Assembly: GCA_038749105.1 (NCBI GenBank)
Contig: JBCDIM010000013.1
Span: forward strand, 1,825-65,824
Reading direction: 5' to 3'
DNA from: Planctomycetota bacterium
Lineage (GTDB): Bacteria; Planctomycetota; Phycisphaerae; Phycisphaerales; Phycisphaeraceae
Length of the DNA stretch: 64,000 nt
Shown here: one piece after another, positions 26,809-45,257 of the stretch
Numbering within the stretch: position 1 is the first letter of the stretch
How the letters are laid out: each line of letters begins with the position of its first letter
Made by a program: the position numbers and the translations under genes
The notes under the pieces: generated by a model
What the model saw: the letters and a program-made list of their open reading frames with translations, nothing else
Databases searched by the model: none
Told to the model about the DNA's origin: nothing

Positions 26809-26874
26809 GCAGCCCACAAGAACGTTTTCCCCCGACCGACACCCGATACCCGACACCCCAAACCCCACTCCGCC

Positions 26875-27642: not shown

Positions 27643-27652
27643 CGCCCCGATA

Positions 27653-27687
27653 CCTACGCCCTACGCCCTAAGCCCTACGCCCTCCAA
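27653..27687 (+). repeat. Heptamer tandem array (CCTACGC CCTACGC CCTAAGC CCTACGC CCTCCAA) in the pilN-pilO spacer
   Basis: Read directly. It ends 13 nt before the pilO ATG and has the same architecture as 46567-46601. Confidence 0.85.
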
Positions 27688-27700
27688 ACCCAGGCCCACC

Positions 27701-28252: not shown

Positions 28253-28258
28253 TCCCCA

Positions 28259-28286
28259 ATTTAGCCCCGGGTCAACGACCCGGGGC
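28259..28286. repeat. TTTAGCC-hairpin element (short subfamily), copy 1
   Basis: ATTTAGCCCCGGGTCAACGACCCGGGGC. Perfect 10-bp stem 28264-28273/28277-28286 with a 3-nt loop. Same core GGTCAA(C/T)GACC as 57892-57920. Confidence 0.8.
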
Positions 28287-28341
28287 CCGCAGCGAGTCCG
28301 CTGTTCAACGACCACGAAACACTCCAACCCCGAGACTTCAA

Positions 28342-29157
28342 GTGAACCCCTCCTTCTTCACCAACCCCGAGCCGCCCAAAGACCCCCACGCCGACGAGCC
28401 CACGCCCGAGAGCGAAGCCCTGCCCGGCCTCGCCCCCGAGGCCCTGACCGACGAGGCCACGCCCGACGACGACCCCCAGTCCATGCCCCTGATGGCCGGC
28501 CTCGGCGCGATGGGCGGCAACAACGAGAACGCCGACCCCCTCGCCCTCGACGCCACCCCCAAGCCCAAGAAGCTCTCCCCCACCGTCCTCGCGCTCGTCA
28601 CCGTCCTGGGCATCTCCGCCGCGGCCCTCTTCGCCATGAAGATGACCTCCGGCCCCCAGTCCGTCGACGCCTCCACCGCCGACGCCATCGCCCAGATCGA
28701 CTCCGCCCTCCAACGCTTCAGCAACCCCGACAAGGTCGCCGCCAACGACCCGCTCCACCCCGACAACCTCGAGGCGATCTACAACACCAGCGACCTCATC
28801 GAGCAGTTCGACCTCGACCGCACCGAGAAGAACGTCCCCGTCAACGAGGTCCAGAAGAACCCGTTCCGCCTCGAAGCCCAGAAGGCCGCCGAACCTGTCG
28901 ACCCCGACGCCGCCCTCAAGGCCGCGGAGGCCGCCCGCATGAAGGCCGAAGCCGAGAAGCTCGCCGCCATCCGTAGCGAGCTCCAGACCCTGACCCTCCA
29001 ATCCGTCATGAACGGCCCTAACCCCATCGCCGTCATCAACGGTGACTTCCTCCGCGTCGGCGCCACCATCGGCTCGTTCAAGATCGCCCGCATCGACCGC
29101 CTCACCGTCACCCTCGAGGCCGACGGCACGTCCTACAAGCTCTCCGTCAAGCGCTAA
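28342..29157 (+). CDS. Hypothetical bitopic membrane protein in the PilP/GspC position
   Basis: GTG start. Acidic, disordered N-terminus, TM LSPTVLALVTVLGISAAALFAM, coiled coil, and a small C-terminal beta domain LQSVMNGPNPIAVINGDFLRVGATIGSFKIARIDRLTVTLE. Function is assigned by position and architecture only. Confidence 0.5.
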   Translation: MNPSFFTNPEPPKDPHADEPTPESEALPGLAPEALTDEATPDDDPQSMPLMAGLGAMGGNNENADPLALDATPKPKKLSPTVLALVTVLGISAAALFAMKMTSGPQSVDASTADAIAQIDSALQRFSNPDKVAANDPLHPDNLEAIYNTSDLIEQFDLDRTEKNVPVNEVQKNPFRLEAQKAAEPVDPDAALKAAEAARMKAEAEKLAAIRSELQTLTLQSVMNGPNPIAVINGDFLRVGATIGSFKIARIDRLTVTLEADGTSYKLSVKR

Positions 29158-29179
29158 TCCCACCCACCAGACCGACCCA

Positions 29180-30979
29180 GTGGACTTCGACCTCGACCAA
29201 CCCGCCGCCCCCGCAACCGCCGCCGCCCCCGCTGCGCCCGCGTCGCTCTTCGAGCCCACCAAGCCCCGGCCCCTCGGGCACGACGCCCTCGGCCAGGCCC
29301 TGGTCACCGCCAAGGCCATCACCGCCGCCCAGCTCGACGCCGCCCTGGCCGTCGCCCAACGCACGCCTGGCTCCCGGCTCATCGACCTCCTGCTCGCCGC
29401 CGGAGCCGACGCCGTCGCCGTCCAGACCGCCGCCGGCGCGTTCTTCGGCGTCCCCTTCCACGCCATCGCCGACGACCAGCTCCAGTCGCTCCACAAGCCC
29501 GTCCACCGGCTCGGCCTCGACTTCTGCGTCGACAAGCAAGTCCTGCCCCTCCGGCCCGACGGCTCCCGCTTCCTCGTCGGGATCGTCCATCCCCAGGACA
29601 TGATCACCCTCGACCACGTCCGCCACAAGCTCGGCCAGTCCATTAAGCCCGTCCTCATCACGCCCGCCGACGTCACCCGCGTCGTCGAGTCCCTTCGTGA
29701 CGACGACCCGCCGGACGAAGAGCTCGCGGTTGAAGACATCATCGCCGACATCGACGAAGACGACGTGGAAGTCGTCGAAGCGAAAGAAGAAGACCTCGAC
29801 CTCGAGAAGATGGCCGGCGAATCGCCCGTCATCCGCTACGTCAACTACCTGATCTACGACGCGGTCAAGCAGGGGGCTTCCGACATCCACATCGAGCCCC
29901 AGGAGAAGAAGCTCCAGGTCCGCTACCGCATCGACGGTGTCCTCTTCGACGCGATGAACCCGCCCGCCCACATGAAGGCGGCCATCGTCTCACGGCTCAA
30001 GATCATGGCGAACCTCGACATCTCCGAGCGACGCCTGCCCCAGGACGGCCGCATCCGGGCCATGGTCCACGGCCGAAAGCTCGACCTGCGTATGTCCACG
30101 CTCCCCATGGTCCAGGGCGAAAAGGTCGTGCTGCGTATCCTCGACACCCGCTCCATCCAGGTCGACCTCGACGACCTGGGCATGTCCGACGACATGCTCG
30201 CGATCTGGAAAAACCAGATCAAAAACCCACACGGCATTATCCTCGTCACCGGGCCCACCGGCTCGGGTAAGACGACGACGCTCTACTCGTCGCTCGGCCA
30301 GATGGACCGCGGCAAGCTCAACATCTCCACCGTCGAAGACCCCGTCGAATACCACCTCTCCGGCATCAACCAGACCCAGGTGCGCGACGACATCGGCATG
30401 TCTTTCGCCGCCGCCCTCCGCGCCCTGCTCCGGCAAGACCCCGACGTCGTCATGGTCGGCGAGATCCGCGACCAAGAGACCGCCAAGACCGCCATCCAGG
30501 CCTCGCTCACCGGCCACCTCGTCCTCTCTACCCTGCACACCAACGACGCGCCGTCCTCCGTCACCCGGCTGATCAACATCGGCGTCGAGCCGTACCTGAT
30601 CGGGTCGGCCGTCAACGCCTGCGTCGCCCAGCGTCTGGTGCGAAAGATCTGCCCGCACTGCGCCGAGCAGACCCCGCCCGACCCCAAGGTCGCCGACCAC
30701 CTCGCCATGCACGGCATCGCCCCGGACCAGGTCTACGCCGGCACCGGCTGCGACAAGTGCCGCAACACCGGCTACTCCGGCCGGATCGGGCTCTACGAGA
30801 TGCTGATCATGAACGACCAGCTCCGCGACCGCATCGCCGGCAACCCCAACGTCACCGAGTTCCGACGCATGTGCATCGAGGGCGGCATGACCACCCTCCG
30901 CGAAGACGGCTTCGCCAAGGTCGCCGCCGGCCAAACCACCGTCGAAGAAGTCCTCCGCGTCACCGAAGCCACGATCTGA
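29180..30979 (+). CDS. pilB: Type II/IV secretion ATPase (GspE/PilB family) with N-terminal T2SSE_N domain
   Basis: Start set at GTG 29180, just after the upstream stop. Walker A GPTGSGKTTT, Asp box, Walker B VVMVGEIRD, His box LVLSTLHTND, tetracysteine CPHC...CDKC. Confidence 0.9.
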   Translation: MDFDLDQPAAPATAAAPAAPASLFEPTKPRPLGHDALGQALVTAKAITAAQLDAALAVAQRTPGSRLIDLLLAAGADAVAVQTAAGAFFGVPFHAIADDQLQSLHKPVHRLGLDFCVDKQVLPLRPDGSRFLVGIVHPQDMITLDHVRHKLGQSIKPVLITPADVTRVVESLRDDDPPDEELAVEDIIADIDEDDVEVVEAKEEDLDLEKMAGESPVIRYVNYLIYDAVKQGASDIHIEPQEKKLQVRYRIDGVLFDAMNPPAHMKAAIVSRLKIMANLDISERRLPQDGRIRAMVHGRKLDLRMSTLPMVQGEKVVLRILDTRSIQVDLDDLGMSDDMLAIWKNQIKNPHGIILVTGPTGSGKTTTLYSSLGQMDRGKLNISTVEDPVEYHLSGINQTQVRDDIGMSFAAALRALLRQDPDVVMVGEIRDQETAKTAIQASLTGHLVLSTLHTNDAPSSVTRLINIGVEPYLIGSAVNACVAQRLVRKICPHCAEQTPPDPKVADHLAMHGIAPDQVYAGTGCDKCRNTGYSGRIGLYEMLIMNDQLRDRIAGNPNVTEFRRMCIEGGMTTLREDGFAKVAAGQTTVEEVLRVTEATI

Positions 30980-30990: not shown

Positions 30991-31042
30991 TTTAGCCCCC
31001 GGCTCTGCCGGGGGGCACTTGGCGTACCGGATGCCTCACGCC
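30991..31042. repeat. TTTAGCC-hairpin element (long, about 50-nt subfamily), copy 1, between convergent pilB and GT4
   Basis: TTTAGCCCCCGGCTCTGCCGGGGGGCACTTGGCGTACCGGATGCCTCACGCC aligns along its length with 45185-45237. The hairpin is GCCCCCGGC-TCTG-CCGGGGGGC. Confidence 0.8.
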
Positions 31043-32244
31043 GCCCGACGCCCGCCCCGCGTCTTCGGCTCTATCTGCGGCGTTGTCTCCACCCCAAGCA
31101 GCCGGTCATACACCGCCGCGACCTTCGCCATCCGCTGCGTAAAGCCATACTCCCGCACGACCCGCTCACGCGCCGCCGCGACCTGCGTCGCCACGTGCGA
31201 GCTCGGCCCGAGCAGACCCGATACCGCCCACGGCCAGTCCGCCTCGTGACGCCCCAGCAGCCGCCCACACCGGCCACCATCCAACGCCTCACTCACCGCA
31301 CCCACCGCCGTCGCCGCCACCGGCACTCCCACCGCCATCGCCTCCAGCAACGCGTTCGGCAGCCCCTCCGTCCGGCTGGGCAACAGCAACGCGTGCATCG
31401 CCTCTAGATACGTCTTCACGTCCCGCTGCCAGCCATGCCAGAACACCCGGCCGGTCATCCCCAACCGCTGCACCTGTTCCGTCAAACGCTTGCGCTCGGG
31501 CCCGTCACCAATCACGTGCAGCTCGACCCGCTCGTTCAGCTTCGCCAGTGTCGGCATCACTTCGATCGCCCGATCGACACCCTTCTCCACGCTCAGCCGG
31601 GCGATCACGCCGAGCACCACCGCGTCTTCCGACATCCCCAGCGCCGCCCGTGCCTCGGCCCGACTCCGCGTCCGCTGATAGACCGACGTGTCGATCGCGT
31701 TCGGCAGGGGGGTCACCCGCTCCTCGTCCATCCCCAGCCCACGGCAGTGCTCGACCAGCTCGAGGCTCACCGCGAACGCGTGGTCGTAACGCTTGATCGC
31801 GGGGTCGGCGATCTTGGCGTAGAGCCGGGTCTTCCAGGTGTCGCGTGTGAAGCCGTGCAGCGTTGTGATCAGCTTCATCGGGTGACGCCGCCGCAGCAGC
31901 AGCCCCAGCACCTCGCTCTTGTAGTCGTGGGCGTGCCAGACCTTCACCCCGTCCCGCCGACAGATCTCCAGCAGGGCGGGCAAGACCCGCCAGTCCAACG
32001 GCCCCCGATCCGCGATCGACTCGAACGGACAACCTTCTTCCAAGGCGGTGCGTTGAAGCACCGCCAGCCCTGGGTCTTCCGGGTCCGCCAGGTACGCCGC
32101 CGACAATGCGTAACGTGCCGGGTCCATCGCCTTCGGTGACCGCAAGATCGTCTTGTCCGGGCCACCCCCGGCACCGTTCACCACCCGCACATGCAACACC
32201 CGCACCCCGCGCCCGTTCTTCATCGTTTCAACAGTGTTCAACAT
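31036..32244 (-). CDS. Glycosyltransferase family 4 (GT-B)
   Basis: Start set at MLNTVETMKNGRGVRVLHV. C-terminal PSRTEGLPNALLEAMAVGVPVAAT (E-x7-E). Confidence 0.8.
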   Translation of the reverse strand: MLNTVETMKNGRGVRVLHVRVVNGAGGGPDKTILRSPKAMDPARYALSAAYLADPEDPGLAVLQRTALEEGCPFESIADRGPLDWRVLPALLEICRRDGVKVWHAHDYKSEVLGLLLRRRHPMKLITTLHGFTRDTWKTRLYAKIADPAIKRYDHAFAVSLELVEHCRGLGMDEERVTPLPNAIDTSVYQRTRSRAEARAALGMSEDAVVLGVIARLSVEKGVDRAIEVMPTLAKLNERVELHVIGDGPERKRLTEQVQRLGMTGRVFWHGWQRDVKTYLEAMHALLLPSRTEGLPNALLEAMAVGVPVAATAVGAVSEALDGGRCGRLLGRHEADWPWAVSGLLGPSSHVATQVAAARERVVREYGFTQRMAKVAAVYDRLLGVETTPQIEPKTRGGRRAA

Positions 32245-32261
32245 TTCCCGTTCCTTTCTTT

Positions 32262-33074
32262 TCATTCCGGCTTGCGCAGCACCACGATCAGGTTGCTCTG
32301 CAGCCCACGCAGCCCCGGCAGCGTCGTCGCCTTGATCATCAACATCTCGGGGACCACCCAACGCCCCAGCGTCCGCGTCTCCGGCGACGTCGGCACCCCG
32401 GCCAGCGCATCCATGACCAGGCCCGCCCGCTTCGCCACTCGACGCAACCGCCGCGTGCTATTCATCCGGTAGTAGGCGGGGTACACGTCCTCCGCCGCCC
32501 GCCCCTCCAACCAGCCCGCCATCCGACTCGCTAGCCGATCCGGCACCACACTCGCCGCCGCCGTCAGCGGGTACCACCGGTTGGGCGTGTGGATCAGCAC
32601 CCGACCACCCGGCCGCAGCACACGCGCCACCTCCGCCATCGCCCGCCGCGGACGACGCAGGTGCTCCGCCACCATGTTCATTGTCACAAGGTCCACACTC
32701 GCGTCCATCACGGGCAGCCGCGTGGCATCGCCCAACCGCAGATCGATCCCCGAAGTGTTTTCTTCTAAAGCCGATACATCCGGGTCCACCCCGATCACAT
32801 AGCCGGCTCGTTCCACCAACGCGTGCTGTCGCGCTTCGCCGCCCCGCAGCCAGCCCGGCGTCAGCCGACGCCCACAGCCCAGGTCCAGCCAGTCATCGCC
32901 CTCCCCGAGCACACCGTCCAGTACGTCGAAGTAGGCGTACTGCGAGTTCATTAAACCCGGCAACAGCCGACGTCGCATCGCCCAGTAGCAGCGGTCATCG
33001 ACGGGTGGCACAACGGGCGTCGCCACCAACGGGCTCGTAGCAGGGGACGCGGTCACAGCATGAACCCCGGGCAT
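32262..33074 (-). CDS. Class I SAM-dependent methyltransferase
   Basis: WLDLGCGRR (motif I), VDLVTMNMVAEHL, LRPGGRVLIHTPN. The ATG at 33074 overlaps the end of the upstream rSAM gene; ATG 32978 is an alternative start. Confidence 0.75.
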   Translation of the reverse strand: MPGVHAVTASPATSPLVATPVVPPVDDRCYWAMRRRLLPGLMNSQYAYFDVLDGVLGEGDDWLDLGCGRRLTPGWLRGGEARQHALVERAGYVIGVDPDVSALEENTSGIDLRLGDATRLPVMDASVDLVTMNMVAEHLRRPRRAMAEVARVLRPGGRVLIHTPNRWYPLTAAASVVPDRLASRMAGWLEGRAAEDVYPAYYRMNSTRRLRRVAKRAGLVMDALAGVPTSPETRTLGRWVVPEMLMIKATTLPGLRGLQSNLIVVLRKPE

Positions 33075-34324
33075 TCGGCACACGGGTTGTTTTCCGCCTG
33101 CTCGTCGGTGATCCGCTTCTTGAAGCTCCGCCGGGCCATCCGGTATTTCTCACCATTCCAGACCTTGCCGAAAGGGCGGTCCAGGGCGGATCCCATGTCC
33201 AGCTCGTGCTCGAACGACCCGCAGCAGACCACGACCTCACCGTCCCAGTTGATCACGCTCTGCCGCCAAGGCCAGGCACAGTTGTGCATCTTGCTCCCAT
33301 TGAATTCTGGTCCCGGATGCGCTCCCGTATCGCGGATCGATTGATAGTTCGACAACACGTAATCCGGGTTCTTGGGGAGCCACTCTTCGAGGTGGTCTTT
33401 GGTCTTTTTCTGAAGGAGGTCGTCGGCAAGCCCGAGCGGCTGGAGCTTCTTATCACGATCGAGGAACCGTAGGTTCATCGAAGCCTGCGAGAAGATCGGC
33501 CGGCAGTCCAGTGACTCCGCCAGTTCGCGGAATACCTCGATCTCGTGCTCGTTGTGCCGTGTCACGACAAAGTTCAGCTGGATCACCGGCGTTGCCGACT
33601 GCAATCGTTGCCGGGTCTCCACGATGTGCTTAACCTTCGCCAGCGTGTCTTCGTAGCTCTTGCCCGGCTGATAGATCGCGAAGGTCTCCTGGCTCGCCCC
33701 GTGCAGCGAGCAGGTCAGCATGTCCAGACCCGACTCGATCAGCTTGGTCGCGTCGTCCTTCCCTTCGACCCCGCCGTCTTTGGTCTTCCGCGGCTCGATC
33801 CGGAACGCGTGCAGGTTGGATGAGATGTAGGTCCAGACGCCGCTGCGGTGCGAGTGGTTGATCATCCGGTAGATATCGTTGTGCACCAGCGGGTCGCCCC
33901 ACATCGACAGGTCCAGCTCGAACAGGTGGCGTTTGACCTGCTTGAACAGCTTTTCGAACGACGCGAAATCCATGCGGCCCTTGCGTCGCCCTTTGAGTCC
34001 CTGGCCGGTCGGGCAGAGCTGGCAGCGGGTGTTGCAGATGTTGGTCGGCTCGATCTTCATCGCATATGGCCGACCGATCACGCGTTCCCGCTTGAGCAGG
34101 AACTCCACGTTGATCAGGGCCATGTTGGCGAGTTTGTAGGCCGTGAGGTACCGGCGGTTCCGCCAGGCCCAGAAGACCCCCCGGGCCAGGAAATCGACCG
34201 CGGCGGTCATTCGTTGCAGCGGAGCCCTCAGGTCGGGTTTGGCCTTCCAGCGCCCGGTCAGGGCGGTGGCCTGCGCCAGCCGGCGGTCAAGCGTCGAGCT
34301 CAGTGTGGTCGCGATTGCGGTCAT
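33053..34324 (-). CDS. Radical SAM enzyme with C-terminal SPASM/twitch-type cysteine cluster
   Basis: IEPTNICNTRCQLCPTG (CxxxCxxC). C-terminal CAWPWRQSVINWDGEVVVCCGSFE ... NPCAECPG. The start ATG overlaps the stop of the upstream ligase gene (ATGA at 34321-34324). GC is visibly lower than in the neighbours. Confidence 0.8.
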   Translation of the reverse strand: MTAIATTLSSTLDRRLAQATALTGRWKAKPDLRAPLQRMTAAVDFLARGVFWAWRNRRYLTAYKLANMALINVEFLLKRERVIGRPYAMKIEPTNICNTRCQLCPTGQGLKGRRKGRMDFASFEKLFKQVKRHLFELDLSMWGDPLVHNDIYRMINHSHRSGVWTYISSNLHAFRIEPRKTKDGGVEGKDDATKLIESGLDMLTCSLHGASQETFAIYQPGKSYEDTLAKVKHIVETRQRLQSATPVIQLNFVVTRHNEHEIEVFRELAESLDCRPIFSQASMNLRFLDRDKKLQPLGLADDLLQKKTKDHLEEWLPKNPDYVLSNYQSIRDTGAHPGPEFNGSKMHNCAWPWRQSVINWDGEVVVCCGSFEHELDMGSALDRPFGKVWNGEKYRMARRSFKKRITDEQAENNPCAECPGFML

Positions 34325-35724
34325 ACCCAAGCCCCCACCCGACCGCGGACACCCGGCTCCGGCTCCGGCTCGGCTTCCGTCTCGGCCTCCGGCGCATCCT
34401 CGTCTTCTTTCAGGCCCTGCTCTGACTCGCGCCGCATCAGCACCGGAGCCAGCCCGCCCAGGGCCATCAGCATCCAGGGCAGTTCCACAGCTTCGGCCGA
34501 CAGGAACAGCGCCGCCACCATAAAGCACAGCAGGCTCGCCTGGAGCGCGAGGCATAGCCGGGCCCGGTCGCCCCAGGCCGCTGCCTCCGGATCACTGGTC
34601 GAAATCAGGGGCGGATCACCCCGCGCGGGCGTGCCGTGCAGCCGCTCGGCCTCGAAGAGGCACGTCTTGCGAGCACGCCCGAACCCGTAGAACGCCAGCC
34701 CGATCGCCAGCACATAGGCGAGCGCCGCGGGGATCCCCGAGTCGGCCGCAAGCTGCAGGTACTGGTTATGGATCGTGCGGTTCGCCATGTCCGCCCCGAA
34801 GTTGTACGACAGCCGGTTCGAGTTCCGAACACCCCGGCCCAGCAGCGGCTCGTCCCAGGCGATCCGCCAGGCTGCGCCCCACGCGTCGAACCGCGACTGG
34901 GCCGACTCGTCCTCCTGGAAGTTCTTCGTCGACATGAACCGGTCGCGGATCTCCGGCCCCGCCATCACCGCCACCGCCAGCGAAAGCGCCGCTAGCCCCA
35001 CCAGCGCCTGCTTCCTGGGCCGGTGGTGCACCAGCAGCCAGATCAACGCCACCGACAACGCCACCATCGCCCCCCGCGAGTACGTCATCATCACCGCGTG
35101 CATCATCAGCAGCCCGAGGAACACCGCGAACACCCGCTTGACCATCACCATCCGGCCCGCCTGCATCAGCCCGAACACATACGCAAACGGCACGCCCATC
35201 GCGATGAACGCGCCTGCCCCGTTGTTGTCCAGCCCCCCGAACCCGTGATGGAACACATCCAGCCGACCGCCCTCGAAGAAGTACATCGCGTTGATCGAAT
35301 ACGCGTGATACCCGATGCACAGCAGCACCATCCCACCGACCGCCCAGAGGTGCCAGGGCTTGCTGATGATCAAGCTCGCCAGGAAGAACACCAGCAGCAC
35401 CTTCCCGTACTCCATCGCCCAGGCCTGGGCCAGGTACGGGTCGTCCGCAGTCACCACGCTCATGGTCATGAATGCTGTGTAGGCCAGCACACAGAGCAGC
35501 ACCGCCCCGAGCCGGGCCTGCCGCCACACCTTGCTGAAGTGCAGCATCACCGACCCCAGCAGCGCGAACGCCGCGATCAGTGACCAACGCAGCTCAGGCC
35601 CGGTGTTCAACGACCAGTGCCAGATGTGCTGCGGGCGCAGTGTCGCCAACCCGTAATACAGCAGCAGCGGCCAGAAAGGCGAGATCAGCCCGCCCAACGC
35701 CCCCACACCAATGGCTACCGTCAT
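34321..35724 (-). CDS. O-antigen ligase-like (Wzy_C domain) polytopic membrane protein
   Basis: More than 10 TM segments. MMTYSRGAMVALSVALIWLLV resembles the Wzy_C core, followed by a large loop. Start set at MTVAIGVG (ATG 35724); the ORF continues to 35856 through lower-GC sequence. Confidence 0.7.
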   Translation of the reverse strand: MTVAIGVGALGGLISPFWPLLLYYGLATLRPQHIWHWSLNTGPELRWSLIAAFALLGSVMLHFSKVWRQARLGAVLLCVLAYTAFMTMSVVTADDPYLAQAWAMEYGKVLLVFFLASLIISKPWHLWAVGGMVLLCIGYHAYSINAMYFFEGGRLDVFHHGFGGLDNNGAGAFIAMGVPFAYVFGLMQAGRMVMVKRVFAVFLGLLMMHAVMMTYSRGAMVALSVALIWLLVHHRPRKQALVGLAALSLAVAVMAGPEIRDRFMSTKNFQEDESAQSRFDAWGAAWRIAWDEPLLGRGVRNSNRLSYNFGADMANRTIHNQYLQLAADSGIPAALAYVLAIGLAFYGFGRARKTCLFEAERLHGTPARGDPPLISTSDPEAAAWGDRARLCLALQASLLCFMVAALFLSAEAVELPWMLMALGGLAPVLMRRESEQGLKEDEDAPEAETEAEPEPEPGVRGRVGAWV

Positions 35725-35884
35725 AAACAGGAAGTGCTTCACAAGAAAAGACTGGAAGACGAGGAAGTTCAACGTCGGGTCGTCCGTGACATCGGGTACG
35801 CGCGGAAAACCCCCCGGTCTATGTCGGCCCCCAACCCAAACCGCCTCCCCGATCACCCCCAGGCCCCCCGGTTATCGGCCCCTC

Positions 35885-37333
35885 ATGCACACACCGACCC
35901 CCGCCTCCAACGGCCAGTCCGTCCCCCAACCCGATACACCCTCAATGGCCGAGCTGCTCCGACCACACCCATCCAGACGCCGGCTCAGGCTCCCGCTGAT
36001 CTGCGTGGCCGTATTCGTGCTCGCGTTTGCTGTCCGCGTTGCCATGGCTTCCGCGTTCGTCGGACTGGGTGCCCCGCCCGACGCCAACGCGAACATCGAT
36101 CAGGTCGACTTCGAGATTATCGCCTGGCACCTCGCCCAAGGCCACGGCTTCACCGTCGATGGCTCCACCCCCACCGCCCGTCGCGCCCTCGGGGCCCCGC
36201 TGATCTTTGCGCCCGTCTACCTGATCACCGGGCAACGCGACTTCGGGATCCTCCGCCTCTGGATCATCGCCCTCTCCGCCGCGACGTGCGTGCTGACCGC
36301 CCTGATCGCCCGACGCCTCGCCCCACCCCGCTACGCCACGCTTGCCGCCGCCCTGGCGGGCCTGGGCCTCGCCCTCTACCCCGGGCACGCCTACTACGCC
36401 ATGCACATGCTCAGCGAGCCCCCCTTCGCCGCGTGCCTCGCCCTGGCGACCTACCTCTCGCTCCTCGCTTGGCAGCACCCCGCAGCCCGCTCCCGGCAGA
36501 CCTGGATCCTCACCGCCGCCGCTGGCACCGCTTGGGCACTGCTCATCCTCACCAAGCCGCAGTTCATCCTGCTGCTCCCGCTCGCCGCCGCCGCGCTGGT
36601 CACCCCGCCGACCGTCCGCTGGCTCCGCCGCCGACCAGTCCGCCTCGTGCAGACGCCCGGCCCGCAGCTGGCCTTCGCGCTGCTCCTCACCACACTGCTC
36701 GTCGTGCCCTGGGGTGTCCGCAACCACCAACAGCTCGGCGTCACCGGGCTCTCCTCCATCGTCGGGCTCGGGCTCTGGGGCGGCAACAACGAGCTGATCC
36801 TTGACGACCCGATCTGGCGCGGCCGATGGCTCCGCATCAGCGAGGTCGAACGCCGGCTCAACCAGCCACTGCCCGACGGCGAAGCCGCCGCCAACCGCGA
36901 GGCCAAGCAGCGCGGCCTCGCCTTCATGAGAGCCCACGCCGCCGAGATGCCCGCCCTCACCCTAACCAAGCTGCAACGCCTCGTCACGCCCTTCCCCCGC
37001 ACCACCAACACCGCCGCCCGCTGGTCCGAAGCGCTCGCCTGGATCACCCTCGCCCCGCTGACCCTCCTCGGCCTCATCCACCTGCTCCGGCACCAACGCC
37101 ACACCCTGGCGTTACCCCTGCTCCTCGCCCCGGTCGTCGTCACCGTCGGTACCGCGGCCGTCTTCTTCGGCATCGTCCGCTACCGCAACGCCCTGGCCCC
37201 CACGCTCCTGGTCCTGGGCGCCCTCGGCCTCGCCTCGCTCCTACACGCCCTCCGCAGCCGCTACGCCAAACCTAACCACACTGCTTACCCGCTGCGCACC
37301 GAAGAGCCACTCCCGACGCGCCGGGCCGCGTGA
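35885..37333 (+). CDS. GT-C fold glycosyltransferase (ArnT / PMT_2, family 39/83-like)
   Basis: Polytopic. N-terminal TM followed by DQVDFEIIAWHLAQGHGF (the D-x-x-Y/F ... G-x-G loop typical of ArnT/PMT-like enzymes). Alternative start 35945. Confidence 0.6.
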   Translation: MHTPTPASNGQSVPQPDTPSMAELLRPHPSRRRLRLPLICVAVFVLAFAVRVAMASAFVGLGAPPDANANIDQVDFEIIAWHLAQGHGFTVDGSTPTARRALGAPLIFAPVYLITGQRDFGILRLWIIALSAATCVLTALIARRLAPPRYATLAAALAGLGLALYPGHAYYAMHMLSEPPFAACLALATYLSLLAWQHPAARSRQTWILTAAAGTAWALLILTKPQFILLLPLAAAALVTPPTVRWLRRRPVRLVQTPGPQLAFALLLTTLLVVPWGVRNHQQLGVTGLSSIVGLGLWGGNNELILDDPIWRGRWLRISEVERRLNQPLPDGEAAANREAKQRGLAFMRAHAAEMPALTLTKLQRLVTPFPRTTNTAARWSEALAWITLAPLTLLGLIHLLRHQRHTLALPLLLAPVVVTVGTAAVFFGIVRYRNALAPTLLVLGALGLASLLHALRSRYAKPNHTAYPLRTEEPLPTRRAA

Positions 37334-37366: not shown

Positions 37367-38035
37367 TCACACCCCGATCTGCCGCAGCACCCAGTCCAGC
37401 CCGTCCATCCCCATCCGGTGCAGGTTGAACGCCGCCGGCACCAGCACCCGCGACGAGAGCACAAACACCCCTACAAACGCCAGCATCCACACGCCCCGCT
37501 TCGCCGGGTCCGACACCGCCCGCGCATACCCGTCGCTGAAGTTCGCCATGATGTGCGACCCGTCCAGCGGCGGCACGGGCATCAGGTTGAACAGCATCAG
37601 CAGCAGGTTGATGTAGCCGAACACCACCAGGAAGTTCACCAGGTTGCCCCGCCAGTCCGGGTCCTCCGGCCGAAACCCCAGCCGAAGACAAACCGTCAGC
37701 CCCACCACCCCCACCGCCGCCAGCAGCAGGTTCGTCACCGGCCCCGCCACCGCCACCAACGCCTCGGCAAACTTGCCCCGAAGCCGGCCCGGGTCGATCG
37801 GCATCTGGCCCCACGCGATCCCCGCAATAAACAACGCCAGCAGCGACCACGGCCCCATGTGCACCAAAGGGTTCCCCGTCATCCGGCCCATCGCCTGGGG
37901 CGTTGGATCCCCCAGCCGCAAGGCCATCCAACCGTGGGCCAGCTCGTGCAGCACGATGCTGATCACCACCGTCACAATCACCGAGCAGAAGAAGAACGGG
38001 TTCTCTGCCGCGGACGTGATAAACAGGCTGCCCAT
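37367..38035 (-). CDS. Site-2 protease family (M50) intramembrane metalloprotease, short form without PDZ
   Basis: HELAHG (HExxH) in TM1 and FNLMPVPPLDGSH (NxxPxxxLDG). Confidence 0.85.
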   Translation of the reverse strand: MGSLFITSAAENPFFFCSVIVTVVISIVLHELAHGWMALRLGDPTPQAMGRMTGNPLVHMGPWSLLALFIAGIAWGQMPIDPGRLRGKFAEALVAVAGPVTNLLLAAVGVVGLTVCLRLGFRPEDPDWRGNLVNFLVVFGYINLLLMLFNLMPVPPLDGSHIMANFSDGYARAVSDPAKRGVWMLAFVGVFVLSSRVLVPAAFNLHRMGMDGLDWVLRQIGV

Positions 38036-38086
38036 GGGTTACTGTGCTCAGCGGAATCGGTCTTCAAGCCACAAAGACGTGCGGCC

Positions 38087-39319
38087 ATGATAGGACAGCC
38101 ATCGGATCAATCCCCCGCCCGGCTCGACCCCCGATATAACCGGGCGGCTTTTGTGCTCGTGCTCGCGGCACTCTTGATGCTCACCGGCTGCGCGGGCTCA
38201 CCCATGCCCACCGCCGACCCCGCCGCCCCCGACTACGCCCGGCCTCTCCCGCCCGGCCAGCCCGCACTCCGCCTCGTCAACGACCCCACCGCCCACCTGT
38301 CCTGGGACGAGCTCGCTCTCCAGGCCCAGCGGCCCGGCTTCCGCGCCGCCCTCGACCGCAGCCGTGTCTGGTTCACCCTCCCGTCCTCGCCCACCCACTT
38401 CCCCCGCTCCGGGATCACCTTCGACCACGCCAAACGCAGCGTCGATGCCTTCGCCGAACTCCTCGATCAACACACCAACCCGGCCGACCAACCCGCGCTC
38501 ACCGCCGCACTCGAAGCCCGCTTCGATCTCTACATGTCCGTCGGCTGGGACGACGCCGGCACCGTCCTCTTCACCGCCTACTACTCCCCCGAGTTCACCG
38601 CCTCAAAAAACCCGGACGCCACCTTCCGCTACCCGCTCTACCAACGCCCCGCCGACCTCGTCTCCGACCCCCGCACCGGCGAAGTCTTCGGCCGAGCCAC
38701 CGCCGCGGGTTACGAGCCATACCCCACTCGCGCCCAGCTCCTCGACTCGGGCGCCCTCCAGGGCACCGAACTCGTCTACCTCCCGGCTCGCCTCGACGCC
38801 TATCTCATCGAGGTCAACGGCTCGGCCAAGCTCAACATGACCGACGGCTCGGTGATGTACGTCGGCCACGCCGGCACCAACGGCCGAGACTACACCTCCA
38901 TCGGCCGAGAGCTCGTCGCCGACGGCAAGCTCGACCCCGCCACCGCCTCGCTGCCTACCCTCAAGGCCCACTTCGAGCAGTCCCCCGACGAGCTGCCCGG
39001 CTACATCCGCCGCAACGACCGCATGGTCTTCTTCAAGGCCTACCCCGGCACCGACTGGCCCGCCGGCTCGCTCGGCTTTACCGTTACTCCTTACCGCTCC
39101 GTCGCCACCGACAAGGCCATCTTCCCACGCGGCGGCGTGACCTTCGCCACCGTCCCCAACCAGGGCATCCGCCTGCTCATGCTGGACCAGGACACCGGCG
39201 GCGCGATCCGAGCCCCCGGCCGTGCCGACCTCTACTTCGGGATCGGCGATGCCGCCGAAGCCGACGCCGGACGTGTCGCCCACGAGGGCAGGCTGTTCTA
39301 TTTGCTCACAACCCGTTAG
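38087..39319 (+). CDS. mltA: Murein transglycosylase A lipoprotein
   Basis: Lipobox LMLTGC. MltA-specific domain plus 3D domain LMLDQDTGGAIRAPGRADLYFGIG. Confidence 0.85.
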   Translation: MIGQPSDQSPARLDPRYNRAAFVLVLAALLMLTGCAGSPMPTADPAAPDYARPLPPGQPALRLVNDPTAHLSWDELALQAQRPGFRAALDRSRVWFTLPSSPTHFPRSGITFDHAKRSVDAFAELLDQHTNPADQPALTAALEARFDLYMSVGWDDAGTVLFTAYYSPEFTASKNPDATFRYPLYQRPADLVSDPRTGEVFGRATAAGYEPYPTRAQLLDSGALQGTELVYLPARLDAYLIEVNGSAKLNMTDGSVMYVGHAGTNGRDYTSIGRELVADGKLDPATASLPTLKAHFEQSPDELPGYIRRNDRMVFFKAYPGTDWPAGSLGFTVTPYRSVATDKAIFPRGGVTFATVPNQGIRLLMLDQDTGGAIRAPGRADLYFGIGDAAEADAGRVAHEGRLFYLLTTR

Positions 39320-39370: not shown

Positions 39371-40270
39371 TCAGGGTGGTGGCGGCTGCCAGTCGGGGTC
39401 GCCTATCGTCGCCGCTAGATTGTTCCACCGCGTCATATCCGACAACGCAACGAAATCAAGATAGGTCGCCGAGCCATCGAGGTGAGACACAATCGCGCTC
39501 TCCTGGCAGCGGAAATCAACCGAGCCCGTATCTTCAGGGACCCCGTCCGGATCGTACGCCGTACCCTGCCACCGGTTCGAAGCGAGTTGATCACTCGGGG
39601 CGGTCACTCGGTAGTTCCCCGGCACCACGTCTTCGCCCGCCGCATCAAGCCCGAACGCCGAAGCGAAGACCAGCAGCCGACTGGGGTCCACCGCCTCTTC
39701 AAACCGGCGGACCACGCCGGGGTTGTTCTCGGTGTTACCCCCCAAGACGAAATAGCCTCCAACGTTATTGGTGTTCATCCCGAAGCTCGGGTTAATGCTG
39801 ACGCGGTACATCCAGACACCGTACTCCGGGTCGCCAGCCCCACCGGTGAAGTCTGTGCTAAACGCAGCCCCGCCTGGCGGGGTAGCGTCCGCATCGGCCC
39901 GCTCGTTGATTAGCACCGACCCTTCCAACGCGTAATCCAGGTAGTTCACCAGCCGCCACGGATAACGCCAAGCTGAGACCCCAAAGAACGGCTCACCGTT
40001 CGGTGCGTAGCCCGGCTCGTCCACCGCATAGCCCTTGATAATCAACCCGTCCTCGTCCAATGACCTGATCGTCACCGCTTGGAGGAGCGTCCGCGCAGCC
40101 GCCAATTCGGCCGCACACGCCGCCGCCTGCCGGCTGGCACCCAACACCGGCAGCAGAATACCAATCAGCAGCGCAATGATGCTGATCACCACCAACAACT
40201 CCACCAAGGTAAAACCACGCACTGCCCGATACTTCACGCCGTGTTCCTTTGCAAGGAGCATCCCGAACAA
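39371..40270 (-). CDS. Prepilin-type N-terminal cleavage/methylation domain protein (DUF1559 / HX9DG-type pseudopilin-like)
   Basis: RGFTLVELLVVISIIALLIGILLPVLG prepilin signal. The C-terminal ...VSHLDGSATYLD resembles the DG end of the HX9DG motif. 24-nt gap to the upstream PEP-CTERM gene. Confidence 0.8.
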   Translation of the reverse strand: MFGMLLAKEHGVKYRAVRGFTLVELLVVISIIALLIGILLPVLGASRQAAACAAELAAARTLLQAVTIRSLDEDGLIIKGYAVDEPGYAPNGEPFFGVSAWRYPWRLVNYLDYALEGSVLINERADADATPPGGAAFSTDFTGGAGDPEYGVWMYRVSINPSFGMNTNNVGGYFVLGGNTENNPGVVRRFEEAVDPSRLLVFASAFGLDAAGEDVVPGNYRVTAPSDQLASNRWQGTAYDPDGVPEDTGSVDFRCQESAIVSHLDGSATYLDFVALSDMTRWNNLAATIGDPDWQPPPP

Positions 40271-40294
40271 TCGCCCGCAGCGTAATCCAATGCC

Positions 40295-41074: not shown

Positions 41075-41265
41075 CCTAAGCCTTACCGAATCACCGGATG
41101 TTTGTCCGGAATGCCCAAACCATCAACCTTGTGGCTAACCGAGCGACAGTGTGACAGTCATTCGGCGAGGGTGTGGTCACCTCGATCCAGAAAACCGCCC
41201 ACGTCCCCCCCAAAAACACTCCGACGCCGGTCAAGGAGAGGGAGTGATCGGATCGCGACAGCGGC

Positions 41266-43131: not shown

Positions 43132-43179
43132 CAGTCCAACCCAACCGCACCCCAGCCTTACTCTGGCTTCCGCCCCCCC

Positions 43180-45178: not shown

Positions 45179-45184
45179 CCACCC

Positions 45185-45237: not shown

Positions 45238-45257
45238 TACCTGCACGCTCCCGCCCC

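Follow-up and report, generated by a model that had tools for sequence, protein, structure and literature searches.

Wzy_C/WaaL-fold proteins are known to use polyprenyl-diphosphate-linked glycans and not simple glycolipids. Calditol synthase Cds and the hopanoid enzymes HpnI/HpnK/HpnJ have been proposed to rearrange or oxidize lipid-bound sugars. The locus described here lies in a 64,000-nucleotide stretch of a Phycisphaeraceae genome (the window) and combines a Wzy_C gene, a radical SAM (rSAM) gene and a GT4 glycosyltransferase gene. It is probably a conserved cell-envelope glycoconjugate assembly operon with a sugar-tailoring radical SAM enzyme. We infer its substrate, chemistry, order of steps and final acceptor; the functional evidence for the rSAM/Wzy_C/GT4 module is association throughout.

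The first gene of the operon (34321 to 35742, minus strand) encodes a membrane protein of the Wzy_C family that has the fold of WaaL, the O-antigen ligase. It is followed on the same strand by the genes for a 423-residue radical SAM enzyme whose C terminus forms a twitch-type auxiliary-cluster domain (33053 to 34324), a class I SAM-dependent methyltransferase (32262 to 33074) and, last, a GT4 glycosyltransferase (GT-B fold, retaining-type family 4; 31036 to 32244). A GT-C fold membrane glycosyltransferase (PMT_2/ArnT-like) is encoded divergently on the plus strand (35945 to 37333), starting at ATG 35945. The Wzy_C stop codon (TGA, 34323 to 34321) and the rSAM start codon (ATG, 34324 to 34322) share the sequence ATGA at 34321 to 34324. 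The methyltransferase frame opens at ATG 33074, which gives a 22-nt overlap with the end of rSAM, or alternatively at GTG 33056, which shares the sequence GTGA with the stop codon of rSAM; the GT4 start at ATG 32244 (MLNTVETMKNG...) lies 17 nt past the methyltransferase stop at 32262. A sequence-only reading of this DNA had described four tightly packed genes with these two overlaps and the 17-nt gap, divergent from the GT-C gene, and the coordinates bear it out in each respect. Wzy_C probably starts at GTG 35742 (MKHFLF...), which fits the family consensus MKQF. The ORF list also has long frames at 35856 and 35711, whose mutual overlap is due only to spurious 5′ extensions. The divergent region between Wzy_C and GT-C (35743 to 35944, no strand assigned) is the presumed promoter region; it yielded neither a sigma-70-like site nor an Rfam match.

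Related loci were compared in 80 Phycisphaeraceae/Phycisphaerales genomes, with 72 loci assessable on both rSAM flanks. Among the cultured bacteria that have the rSAM gene are Mucisphaera calidilacus Pan265, Poriferisphaera sp. WC338 and strain ZRK32. Wzy_C, rSAM and GT4 occur on one strand and in that order in 69 of the 72, at identities of 34 to 88% (Wzy_C), 45 to 94% (rSAM) and 36 to 86% (GT4). The distance from the Wzy_C stop to the rSAM start ranges from −58 to +53 nt (70 loci), and the stop-start overlap is kept down to 45% identity. Across the family, Wzy_C, rSAM and GT4 are thus both conserved and translationally coupled. GT4 lies downstream of rSAM in every locus whose contig extends past rSAM (72/72), directly adjoining it in nearly all, with a methyltransferase, GT-C or extra GT4-like gene inserted in about 10. 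Three loci have rSAM-GT4 without Wzy_C, so the pairing with the ligase has exceptions. Most genes inserted within or next to the core encode glycan enzymes (methyltransferase, GT-C, extra GT4, GT2); the exception is L043, where a sulfatase gene lies immediately upstream of rSAM. Just 7 of the 80 loci (L001, L002, L006, L007, L008, L012 and L013) have the methyltransferase separating rSAM from GT4, whereas about 34 of the 80 have GT-C homologues, of two types, close to the triad, with no fixed position or orientation. Both genes are lineage-specific additions to the module. Conservation of gene order, a check proposed beforehand, is borne out for the three-gene core and does not extend to the methyltransferase or the placement of GT-C. 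GT-C homologues near the triad are often accompanied by a methyltransferase and a GT2.

The earlier observation that the rSAM gene is lower in GC than its neighbors is real (0.585 to 0.62 versus 0.65 to 0.72), and 61 of 69 related loci show the same drop. The GC3 of 0.842 is like that of the neighbors (0.82 to 0.89), the fall being confined to codon positions 1 and 2. The low GC reflects amino acid composition, not horizontal transfer, and carries no information.

The surrounding genes (HslU, PilMNO-GspE, aminotransferases, rotamase) are also syntenic across the Phycisphaeraceae, so conservation of gene order is not specific by itself. The adjacency could in principle be inherited synteny without a common pathway, with rSAM serving an unrelated housekeeping role (such as maturing a cofactor or metallocluster) or an antiviral role like that of viperin, a reading with only the slimmest chance of being correct. 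PADLOC returned weak pVip matches (32 bits) for rSAM, and viperin-like proteins were among its Foldseek matches, but the NCBIfam viperin model scored 20 bits against a cut-off of 180. Survival of the Wzy_C/rSAM overlap at 45% identity also argues against mere synteny, as do independent fusions in other lineages and the recurrence of the GT4/rSAM/Wzy_C association in more distant metagenomic loci. Among relatives matching the family profile at E ≤ 1e-50, P0132 is a GT4-rSAM fusion, P0227 joins Methyltransf_11 to rSAM, and P0260 joins rSAM to a DegT/DnrJ/EryC1 sugar aminotransferase, an arrangement that we take to mirror the BtrN/BtrS dehydrogenase-aminotransferase pairing. The locus with the GT4-rSAM fusion (L088) encodes Wza, Wzx, acetyltransferases, the fusion protein, Wzy_C and asparagine synthase. 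L091/L092 contain Wzx, GT2s, the series GT4, rSAM, GT4, GT4 and Wzy_C, and a deacetylase; glycan clusters are also found at L083 and L089. Two of the six outgroup contexts inspected individually (L084-86 and L087) are not glycan clusters. The neighbors of 41 metagenomic rSAM relatives, taken up to two positions away (142 genes), include 16 GT2, 11 GT4, about 7 class I methyltransferases, 5 NDP-sugar epimerase/dehydratases, 4 PMT_2, 3 GT9 and 21 other rSAMs, and no RiPP family appears in the top 25 of this census.

The radical SAM enzyme matched Pfam Radical_SAM (1.4e-10) and SPASM (2.1e-13), and 338 homologues were found at E ≤ 1e-10. The best 120 of these are 57 to 94% identical, and those with an organism name come from Phycisphaerae or unclassified Planctomycetota. 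No curated NCBIfam family was reached, which upholds the separation from characterized families that the sequence-only reading had proposed to check: the best match, TIGR04317, scored 75 bits where 380 are required, and PqqE, MoaA, MftC, NirJ/Ahb and viperin were far under their cut-offs. The 22 matches listed include no model for the anaerobic sulfatase maturase (anSME). The four cysteine motifs reported earlier are all present in the translation. CNTRCQLC (residues 97 to 104; 34013 to 34036, minus strand) is a CX3CX2C motif whose cysteines, C97, C101 and C104, are invariant in 15 homologues and bind the SAM-cleaving [4Fe-4S] cluster. In the C-terminal region, CAWPW (C349), CCGSFE (C367/C368) and CAECPG (C415/C418) make up the pattern C349-X12-G-X4-C367C368 ... 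C415-X2-C418 (33071 to 33280, minus strand), and the protein ends 5 residues past C418. All five cysteines are invariant in the 15 aligned homologues. C349, C367, C415 and C418 each align with a cysteine of the BtrN C-terminal domain, and the CX2CX5CX3C block required for a second SPASM cluster is absent from rSAM. The cysteine pattern permits one auxiliary cluster, not two, and the region reads as a BtrN-type twitch domain with a single cluster at those four residues. Of the earlier "SPASM/twitch-like" description, the Cys-rich C terminus stands and the SPASM label does not.

A family-profile search of PDB sequences matched BtrN (1.8e-9, over the twitch domain) and BlsE (0.008) and no others. 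With the AF2 model of rSAM (pLDDT 82, pTM 0.83), the top Foldseek matches were the sugar-modifying enzymes DesII (2e-10) and BlsE (2e-8), a likeness of general rSAM fold only (TM about 0.45 to 0.5, identity 12 to 16%). The peptide-modifying PqqE, anSME, SkfB and EpeE were also returned (E 1e-7 to 1e-5). These matches, together with the Pfam SPASM match and the weak best NCBIfam matches (W-cofactor maturase, rSAM_Geo_metal and PqqE), would suit a protein or peptide maturase acting, like anSME, on sulfatases or on a RiPP, a PEP-CTERM protein or Wzy_C itself, with its substrate encoded elsewhere. The sulfatase gene at L043 points the same way, as do the other rSAMs among the outgroup neighbors, an arrangement also known in some RiPP clusters, and two PEP-CTERM proteins in the window (40295 to 41074 and 41266 to 42135), 3 to 5 kb from the module. 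We nevertheless consider a maturase very unlikely. The named maturase families all scored far under their cut-offs, the cysteines fit one auxiliary cluster only, and the fusion partners (GT4, methyltransferase, DegT) include none that handles peptides. No credible small ORF was found in the 17-nt, 56-nt or 202-nt divergent gap of the window, and about 70 related loci, with their larger gaps, have no conserved one, in agreement with the earlier statement that there is no precursor peptide. PEP-CTERM genes adjoin the module only in the window and in L002, the relative closest to it, and the ORFs scanned in the window include no exosortase; the PEP-CTERM proteins are indeed nearby, but their earlier candidacy as rSAM substrates is not sustained.

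The N terminus was compared with the peptide-recognition element (RRE) fold as defined previously (PMC8326336). There was no Pfam match to an RRE, and the AF2 model shows an extension of about 85 residues (34070 to 34324, minus strand) with three helices (residues 2 to 27, 34 to 55 and 62 to 77; pLDDT 87 to 96) and no beta strands; it is thus not an RRE fold. The extension is basic and aromatic-rich, without a transmembrane segment. Its first 40 or so residues are confined to the Phycisphaeraceae clade, as outgroup proteins begin to align only at profile position ~35 to 57. A glycan rather than a peptide substrate, already favored in the sequence-only reading, is strengthened by the BtrN-type twitch, the lack of an RRE, the GT4, methyltransferase and DegT fusions and the Wzx/Wzy loci.

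The Wzy_C protein matched Pfam Wzy_C (8.2e-26) and, at 123 bits, fell under the TIGR03097 cut-off of 188; the sole significant Foldseek match of its AF2 model (pLDDT 81.7) was WaaL (7tpg; E 2e-7, TM 0.55/0.62). Its conserved His/Arg loop, RTIHNQYLQLAADSG (34735 to 34779, minus strand), is a candidate catalytic motif; 21 homologues show no variation at R316, H319, Q321, L323, Q324, A327, D328 or G330. The motif presumably resembles the WaaL motif H[NSQ]X9GXX[GTY]. GT4 matched Glycos_transf_1 (4.8e-29) and Glyco_transf_4 (1.8e-14); its best NCBIfam match was stp2, a PEP-CTERM/XrtA glycosyltransferase (116 bits, well under the cut-off of 409). The closest solved structures to GT4 are BshA-type GT4s (7e-18) and WaaG/WaaB, with PimA and MshA also close. 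The methyltransferase matched Methyltransf_11 (4.1e-17) and reached no NCBIfam cut-off. The PMT_2 assignment of GT-C is marginal because it scored 26.9 bits against a cut-off of 26.1, and GT-C had no NCBIfam or PDB sequence match.

Alternatively, the module might remodel a membrane-glycolipid head group rather than a polyprenyl-linked surface glycan: GT4 would glycosylate a membrane lipid, rSAM would rearrange or oxidize the lipid-bound sugar, and the Wzy_C-like protein would handle the lipid in the membrane. Cds and HpnJ are precedents for rSAM chemistry on lipid-bound sugars (PMC13459092). The module is small, single-copy and family-wide, and it is surrounded by housekeeping genes rather than lying in a variable exopolysaccharide (EPS) island; BshA, PimA and MshA act on small or lipid acceptors; and the basic, aromatic-rich helices of rSAM could rest on the surface of a membrane. 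The pathway is incomplete in cis: the window locus has no initiating phosphoglycosyltransferase, no Wzx flippase and no NDP-sugar genes, and no Wza export protein is encoded nearby. We regard this alternative as unlikely, since the substrates used by Wzy_C/WaaL-fold proteins speak against it, rSAM relatives sit within full Wzx/Wzy polysaccharide loci, and neither HpnH nor HpnJ is among the 22 NCBIfam matches listed for rSAM.

For the favored surface-glycan operon, GT4 would move a sugar on the cytoplasmic side from a nucleotide sugar onto a lipid-linked acceptor, probably a polyprenyl-phosphate-linked one. rSAM, which most likely performs radical chemistry on a sugar, would then act on the transferred sugar or its activated precursor. 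Carrying a SAM-cleaving cluster and one BtrN-type auxiliary [4Fe-4S] cluster, it would abstract a hydrogen atom, most likely so that a secondary alcohol undergoes two-electron oxidation to give a keto sugar while the auxiliary cluster takes up the electrons; the evidence for alcohol oxidation is solely the analogy with BtrN and one fusion protein. Epimerization, deoxygenation or ring rearrangement are alternative outcomes. In the window sub-lineage, the class I methyltransferase would add a methyl group. Once the glycan is flipped to the outer side of the cytoplasmic membrane, the WaaL-fold Wzy_C protein would transfer or polymerize it there, and the divergent GT-C may add further decoration from a polyprenyl-phosphate sugar. 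To our knowledge, a radical step on a sugar has not yet been described for bacterial surface glycans, and this radical SAM enzyme is a good target for enzymology.

Region 31036-37333 of the window, which has a GC content of 67% over its whole length, contained four close-set minus-strand genes and one divergent plus-strand gene. The minus-strand genes encode a Wzy_C-family membrane protein (34321-35742; Pfam Wzy_C, 8.2e-26), a 423-aa radical SAM protein (rSAM; 33053-34324; Pfam Radical_SAM, 1.4e-10, and SPASM, 2.1e-13), a class-I SAM methyltransferase (32262-33074; Pfam Methyltransf_11, 4.1e-17), and a GT4 glycosyltransferase (31036-32244; Pfam Glycos_transf_1, 4.8e-29). The plus-strand gene (35945-37333) encodes a GT-C/PMT_2-like protein with a marginal PMT_2 match (26.9 bits versus a cut-off of 26.1). 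The tight packing and the divergent GT-C gene described in the sequence-only reading were borne out by these coordinates. The sequence ATGA at 34321-34324 contains both the Wzy_C stop and the rSAM start. The methyltransferase gene begins within the end of the rSAM gene, at ATG 33074 or GTG 33056, and 17 nt separate the methyltransferase stop from the GT4 start. Homologue alignment indicated GTG 35742 (MKHFLF...) as the start of Wzy_C and ATG 35945 as that of GT-C; given these starts, the divergent region is 202 nt long. Neither this region nor the two short gaps contained a credible small ORF or an Rfam match, and promoter/terminator and Rfam scans of 30.5-38.5 kb yielded no useful signal.

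The rSAM protein carries all of the motifs first noticed by eye (CNTRCQLC, CAWPW, CCGSFE, and CAECPG). It matched the radical SAM superfamily (PF04055) at 42.1 bits against a gathering threshold of 29.5, and its SAM-binding [4Fe-4S] motif, CX3CX2C (C97-X3-C101-X2-C104), was invariant in 15 homologues. Residues 349-419 matched Pfam SPASM (PF13186; 50.7 bits versus 21.5), a model that also catches twitch domains. SPASM proper has the pattern CX9-15GX4C ... CX2CX5CX3C ... C, with seven cysteines and two auxiliary [4Fe-4S] clusters, a definition said to come from Haft and Basu in 2011 and Grell in 2015. The C-terminal pattern of rSAM is C349-X12-G-X4-C367 plus C415-X2-C418, with the chain stopping 5 residues past C418, and the CX2CX5CX3C block of the second auxiliary cluster of a true SPASM domain was not present. 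Across the 15-homologue alignment the invariant cysteines were C97, C101, C104, C349, C367, C368, C415, and C418. In a family-profile alignment (E 1.8e-9), C349, C367, C415, and C418 paired with cysteines of the C-terminal domain of BtrN (PDB 4m7t), which we take to be the ligands of the BtrN auxiliary cluster. The cysteine pattern argues for one predicted auxiliary cluster and not two. Because of this one-cluster pattern and the BtrN profile match, the C-terminal region, proposed earlier as SPASM/twitch-like, is better called a putative BtrN-type twitch domain; its cysteine motifs and Pfam match stand, and the designation as SPASM proper does not. A twitch rSAM model, NF033640, aligned to residues 349-418 at 27.2 bits, well below its cut-off of 170.

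BtrN, the 2-deoxy-scyllo-inosamine dehydrogenase of the butirosin pathway, is the prototype twitch-domain radical SAM enzyme, and its substrate is of the carbohydrate type. It has in common with rSAM the CX3CX2C motif and a single C-terminal auxiliary-cluster domain, predicted in the case of rSAM. The two proteins are otherwise far apart: rSAM is 423 aa long and BtrN about 250 aa, only rSAM has 85 residues of N-terminal helices and a long pre-twitch insert, identity is about 14% (Foldseek 1.7e-6, TMq 0.37), and the rSAM gene lies in a glycan-assembly operon rather than an aminoglycoside cluster. BtrN (1.8e-9) and BlsE (0.008) were the only PDB sequences matched by the rSAM family profile. The best structural neighbors of an AlphaFold model of rSAM (pLDDT 82, pTM 0.83) were DesII (8hzv; 2e-10) and BlsE (7vob; 2e-8), followed by PqqE, viperin-like enzymes, MoaA, anSME, SkfB, and BtrN. 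Since all TM scores were below 0.5, rSAM shares just a general fold with these proteins. DesII and BlsE, a cytosylglucuronate decarboxylase, act on TDP-sugar or nucleoside-sugar substrates, and the nearest structurally characterized enzymes to rSAM are thus sugar acting. Nevertheless, rSAM belongs to neither family (TM 0.44-0.49, identity 12-16%), and the gene contexts differ.

No NCBIfam cut-off was reached by rSAM. Its best match was TIGR04317, a tungsten (W)-cofactor maturase (75.2 bits versus 380), with PqqE (33.9 versus 381), MoaA (28.8 versus 284), MftC (28 versus 265), and viperin (20.2 versus 180) lower still. The NirJ/Ahb (AhbC/AhbD) scores were also far under the TIGR04317 score, and the HpnH, HpnJ, and anSME models were not among the matches at E<=0.01. 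Ten members drawn from the closest outgroup sequences of the family likewise reached no NCBIfam cut-off, and membership in a named family was rejected for them as well as for the window protein. As the sequence-only reading had implied, rSAM stands outside the characterized families checked with NCBIfam, among them the HpnH, MoaA, heme, and PQQ types.

A role for rSAM as a protein or peptide maturase is unlikely. The protein shares the Pfam SPASM match and the core fold with the SPASM maturases (anSME, PqqE, MftC, and sactisynthases), but unlike them it has no second-cluster block, RRE, precursor gene, or family-level score. No PqqD/RRE Pfam match was found in rSAM. An RRE is a winged helix-turn-helix with a three-stranded sheet (PMC8326336); residues ~1 to 85 of rSAM are three helices with no strands in the AlphaFold2 model, and the N terminus is therefore not an RRE. 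Hydrophobic-moment analysis gave no clear sign of a membrane anchor in these helices. In most of about 70 related loci the gaps around rSAM are too short for a precursor gene, and no conserved ORF was found in the larger rSAM-GT4 gaps of six others (L031, L037, L040, L046, L052, and L064). With none credible in the window gaps and none conserved in those of relatives, a hidden precursor peptide was rejected, in agreement with the initial proposal that the operon has none.

A search of a database of 5.8 billion proteins returned 338 rSAM homologues at E<=1e-10. The best 120 of these were full-length, 57 to 94% identical, and named merely "radical SAM/SPASM domain protein"; those with an organism name were Phycisphaerae or unclassified Planctomycetota, with Poriferisphaera, Mucisphaera, Phycisphaera, and many MAGs among the sources. 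The rSAM gene does have a lower GC content than its neighbors, as had been noticed. However, its GC3 is normal (0.842 versus 0.82-0.89 in neighbors), the deficit lies in codon positions 1 and 2, and the offset recurs in 61 of 69 relatives. The dip is therefore no sign of foreign origin but a matter of amino-acid composition, and horizontal transfer was rejected as its cause. Two 2-oxoacid:ferredoxin oxidoreductase genes with POR and TPP-binding domains are found at 15357-18930 (minus strand). They fit the availability of low-potential ferredoxin as a reductant for radical SAM enzymes in this organism.

The Wzy_C protein matched PF04932 at 91 bits (gathering threshold, 31.7), and its family has the invariant motifs GGLDNNGAG, SRGAM, DxSxxxR, RN, and R316-T-I-H319-N-Q-Y-L-Q...D328-x-G330. 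PDB sequence searches with the single sequence and with a profile gave no match; fold search alone identified WaaL. WaaL (7tpg_B of entry 7tpg) was the sole significant PDB fold match of the AlphaFold model (pLDDT 81.7; E 2e-7, TMq 0.55, TMt 0.62). WaaL has a periplasmic-loop catalytic motif, H[NSQ]X9GXX[GTY], with which H319-N-X9-G330-I-P-A of the window protein agrees save at the last position; R316, H319, D328, and G330 were invariant in 21 homologues. WaaL, the fold match, and the PglL/PilO O-oligosaccharyltransferases belong to the same Pfam family as the Wzy_C protein. To our knowledge, translational coupling with a radical SAM gene is not described for any characterized WaaL, PglL, or Wzy protein. 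In NCBIfam, the best match was TIGR03097, "putative O-glycosylation ligase," at 123.4 bits, below the cut-off of 188.1; several homologues carry a name of this style in JGI. The RfaL score was 21.8 bits versus a cut-off of 277. The GT4 protein matched Glycos_transf_1 (101.5 bits) and Glyco_transf_4 (54.5 bits), both over cut-off; it is a generic GT4, with BshA-type and LPS-core GT4s as its nearest structures. Its best NCBIfam match, TIGR03088 stp2, a PEP-CTERM/XrtA system glycosyltransferase, was subthreshold (116 bits versus 409). The GT-C protein had no NCBIfam match and no PDB sequence match, and its homologue in locus L082 is likewise annotated, weakly, as PMT_2.

The best NCBIfam matches of the Wzy_C (TIGR03097) and GT4 (stp2) proteins belong to exosortase-A/PEP-CTERM EPS loci. 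The window differs from those loci in that the scores were below cut-off, no exosortase was found, and the adjacency of PEP-CTERM genes is not conserved. We know of no radical SAM enzyme described in that system. Wzx, Wza, an initiating transferase, and an exosortase were all lacking among the ~45 window ORFs scanned. Two PEP-CTERM proteins are encoded 3 to 5 kb from the operon and had been put forward as a candidate rSAM substrate. Among 80 related loci, this adjacency was otherwise found only in L002, the closest relative, and with no exosortase found the proposal gained no support. The two genes are part of a separate, lower-GC stretch (39371-42135, minus strand; GC 0.57-0.63 versus 0.67 for the window), which also encodes a prepilin-type N-terminal-methylation protein; this stretch looks like a variable island, because its homologues adjoin the operon only in L002.

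To characterize conservation, a one-genome-per-species scan that produced 80 loci was followed by tblastn with the window proteins. Nearly all of the loci are labeled Phycisphaeraceae, Phycisphaerales, or unclassified Planctomycetota, and two are labeled Planctomycetaceae. The order Wzy_C, rSAM, GT4 on the same strand was observed in 69 loci; in 8 more, the contig ended before one partner was visible. The remaining three (L028, L043, and L070) retained rSAM-GT4 with no Wzy_C gene upstream, its place being taken by a GT-C gene, a sulfatase gene, and a short ORF, respectively. The rSAM start lay between -58 and +53 nt from the Wzy_C stop, mostly overlapping it, in 70 of 70 measured loci, and the coupling held down to 45% rSAM identity. 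A methyltransferase gene between rSAM and GT4 was present in just 7 loci, all near relatives of the window; other inserts at this site were a GT-C gene (L014) and an extra GT4-like gene (L073 and L074). Upstream of Wzy_C is a variable slot occupied by one of two GT-C types, a methyltransferase, a GT2, or varied combinations of these, and bordered by housekeeping genes that form a conserved block, two of the aminotransferase fold and one for a rotamase. Because the accessory genes vary between lineages, the core is Wzy_C-rSAM-GT4, with rSAM-GT4 as the most invariant pair. The window methyltransferase and GT-C genes are accessories, though glycan related. Thus, the proposed four-gene order held for three of its genes, and the methyltransferase is not a conserved part of it. 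The accessories recall three-component periplasmic glycosylation, in which a GtrB/ArnC-type GT2 and a flippase work with a GT-C enzyme such as ArnT: the GT-C protein is PMT_2/ArnT-like, and many related loci add a GT2 and a methyltransferase. The window differs in having the GT-C gene only, with no adjoining GT2 or small flippase.

Other genes near the core were also recorded. In L043, the sulfatase gene that replaces Wzy_C directly upstream of rSAM (8423-9910) is a single case and recalls sulfatase/anSME pairs. A class-V aminotransferase-fold gene lies on the same strand upstream of Wzy_C in L029/L081 (7000-8208), L043 (7233-8453), L070 (8111-9334), and ~24 more loci. This gene, which has the cysteine-desulfurase-like motifs YLDNAATS, GHK, and GIHCAP, was found near Wzy_C in ~27 of the 80 loci and directly upstream in several. 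A role in sulfur supply for Fe-S clusters is conceivable, as is mere synteny; since no copy is present near the window operon, it was rejected as an obligate partner in cis.

The wider clade was surveyed with an exhaustive profile search of the rSAM family over 1.84 billion cluster representatives (50% identity clusters). The Phycisphaeraceae clade appeared as one representative at 767 bits, with the next score at 410 bits; in all, 1,232 representatives were found at E<1e-30 and 9,360 at E<1e-10, mostly 330 to 380 aa long. Fusions were present among the 150 best matches. In the outgroup protein P0132, a GT4 domain precedes the rSAM/twitch module, and in P0227 a Methyltransf_11 domain does so. 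In P0260, rSAM is followed by a DegT/DnrJ/EryC1 sugar aminotransferase, a fusion that presumably mirrors the BtrN/BtrS pairing. P0146 and P0198 have B12-binding rSAM domains joined to the rSAM/twitch module, with TPR repeats in some.

The readable genomic contexts of outgroup rSAM genes were mostly glycan loci. The GT4-rSAM fusion gene lies in a canonical Wzx/Wzy locus (L088) with genes for Poly_export, a ParA-like ATPase, a FemAB-like acyltransferase, glycosyltransferases, Wzx, and acetyltransferases, then the fusion gene, Wzy_C, and asparagine synthase. The locus of P0128 (L091/L092) encodes Wzx, pyruvyl and acetyl transferases, and GT2s, then GT4, rSAM, GT4, GT4, and Wzy_C in that order, and after Wzy_C a deacetylase, a HisKA_7TM kinase, and a sigma-54 regulator. 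That of P0139 (L083) has three GT4s, two asparagine synthases, a sulfotransferase, and an adjoining methyltransferase. The asparagine synthases, the HisKA_7TM kinase, and the sigma-54 regulator are typical of exosortase-A/PEP-CTERM EPS loci. The methyltransferase-rSAM fusion gene (L089) is accompanied by many glycosyltransferase and methyltransferase genes, NDP-sugar enzymes, and a DegT aminotransferase. Two contexts were not obviously glycan related: an isolated gene in L084 to L086 and two tandem rSAM paralogues in L087.

In a census of 80 metagenomic outgroup loci, 142 genes within two positions of 41 rSAM members were scanned with Pfam. The neighbors included 21 Radical_SAM proteins (15 with SPASM), 16 Glycos_transf_2, 11 Glycos_transf_1 (GT4), ~7 class-I methyltransferases, 5 NAD epimerase/dehydratases, 4 each of PMT_2 and B12-binding proteins, and 3 each of GT9 and FkbM methyltransferases. 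RiPP-associated families were absent from the 25 commonest Pfam families of these neighbors. The rSAM family is therefore predominantly part of glycan-biosynthesis loci in this sample, and the window gene set (Wzy_C, rSAM, methyltransferase, GT4, and GT-C) recurs in more distant metagenomic loci.

Several outgroup loci had features of their own. Tandem rSAM/SPASM neighbors are frequent for outgroup rSAM/twitch genes (e.g., L087, 1760-4154), and in L089 the methyltransferase-rSAM fusion gene (10001-13275) is immediately followed by a B12-binding rSAM gene. Tandem rSAMs and B12-binding rSAM fusions suggest multistep radical chemistry in some outgroup loci. The same large glycan cluster in L089 encodes a PMT_2 (GT-C)-methyltransferase fusion protein (18042-19856), which mirrors the side-by-side genes for these two enzymes in many Phycisphaeraceae loci. 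In the metagenomic locus L093 (24-1918), a Wzy_C gene and the start of an rSAM gene overlap; the rSAM has 408 aa and shares 44% identity with the outgroup protein P0122. Wzy_C-rSAM coupling may therefore reach beyond the genome-sampled clade.

Together, these results support a functional tie between rSAM and glycan handling, not peptides, as the sequence-only reading had favored. The tie is drawn from the persistent Wzy_C stop/start coupling, from fusions in which GT4, methyltransferase, and DegT domains were independently joined to rSAM, from the full polysaccharide loci in which GT4/rSAM/Wzy_C recurs, and from the BtrN-like domain with one predicted cluster; all functional statements on the operon rest on association. 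Alongside this coupling and these fusions, mere synteny without a common pathway is an unlikely explanation of the shared gene order. A role in a defense system is also unlikely. PADLOC returned only generic matches for it: pVip at 32 bits, over the core of rSAM, and mad2 at 41 bits, with the methyltransferase. GT4, Wzy_C, and GT-C had none, and the rSAM viperin score in NCBIfam (20 bits versus 180) is likewise against it.

The operon is surrounded by housekeeping genes for HslU, a PilM-PilN-PilO-GspE cluster, an M50 protease, MltA, Cmk, PlsC, pyruvate:ferredoxin oxidoreductase, and TsaD. The Pil/GspE cluster, PilM-PilN-PilO-(271-aa protein)-GspE/PilB ATPase (25516-30979, plus strand), lies beside HslU (23951-25348, minus strand) and runs toward the GT4 gene, ending 56 nt from it. 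The cluster, usually with HslU, is downstream of GT4 in at least 30 related loci. Since Wzy_C-family O-oligosaccharyltransferases glycosylate pilins in other bacteria, a pilin or pseudopilin is, by analogy, a conceivable glycan acceptor. On the other side are an M50-family intramembrane protease gene (37367-38035, minus strand) and, within region 37367-39319, a 633-aa plus-strand ORF of which residues 384-629 (~38567-39304) encode an MltA/3D-domain lytic transglycosylase; the long 5′ part of this ORF, which overlaps the M50 gene antisense, is probably not coding. Further along (42343-46550, plus strand), genes for a cytidylate kinase, a PlsC-type acyltransferase, and two more GT4-type glycosyltransferases lie in a row and may represent a separate glycolipid or glycan pathway.

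A pathway can be proposed from these associations. The GT4 enzyme would add a sugar to a lipid-linked intermediate at the cytoplasmic face, and this sugar, or its nucleotide precursor, would lose a hydrogen atom to rSAM. With electrons passing to the putative auxiliary cluster, the product could be a keto sugar or a rearranged, epimerized, or deoxygenated derivative, which the methyltransferase might alter in some lineages. Once flipped, the glycan would be ligated or polymerized by the WaaL-fold protein, and GT-C enzymes may add periplasmic decorations. The main alternative is a membrane-glycolipid version of the same logic. In the HpnI/HpnK/HpnJ and calditol synthase (Cds) systems, a glycosyltransferase sugars a lipid and a radical SAM enzyme reworks that sugar (PMC13459092). 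The window operon shares this logic; however, those systems have no Wzy_C partner, and rSAM is not an HpnJ or HpnH member by NCBIfam. The family-wide, single-copy, syntenic distribution of the genes suggests that the product is a conserved envelope component, for example, LPS core, O-unit, a conserved glycolipid, or the conserved glycan of a glycoprotein. It does not resemble a capsule that varies from strain to strain.

Nucleotide-sugar chemistry, glycosyltransferases, and Wzy/WaaL-type membrane enzymes normally account for the synthesis of bacterial surface glycans. A characterized radical SAM step within a Wzy_C/WaaL-type module was not found in curated family libraries or in targeted searches of open-access papers, as the sequence-only reading had suspected. 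The arrangement itself is not unseen, because the genes are visible and automatically annotated in databases. The new element is to recognize that the module is conserved and coupled and that the twitch-rSAM clade is large and associated with glycans, and we rate the module as Wzy/WaaL-dependent glycan assembly with an unprecedented putative tailoring enzyme. One bolder reading, to which we give rather low odds, is that rSAM uses its clade-specific N-terminal helices to dock on the WaaL-fold protein, at the cytoplasmic face, and there performs radical chemistry directly on the lipid-linked glycan. The result would be a sugar new to bacterial surface polymers (e.g., keto, carbocyclic, or C-C-linked) and a conserved signature of the Phycisphaeraceae envelope. 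The clade of >1,200 clusters (50% identity, E<1e-30) would then be a widespread oxygen-independent class of enzymes that tailors glycans across bacterial polysaccharide loci.

The family-wide ligase coupling, the fusions, and the metagenomic polysaccharide loci make it a strong, testable hypothesis that a large, unstudied twitch-type rSAM clade (~1,200 clusters at 50% identity, E<1e-30) tailors glycans. It can be tested in cultured carriers, namely, Mucisphaera calidilacus Pan265, Poriferisphaera sp. WC338, and strain ZRK32. If the hypothesis is true, thousands of genes named "radical SAM/SPASM domain protein" would gain an annotation and glycan biosynthesis a new reaction type, and new sugar structures would be indicated in planctomycete envelopes.
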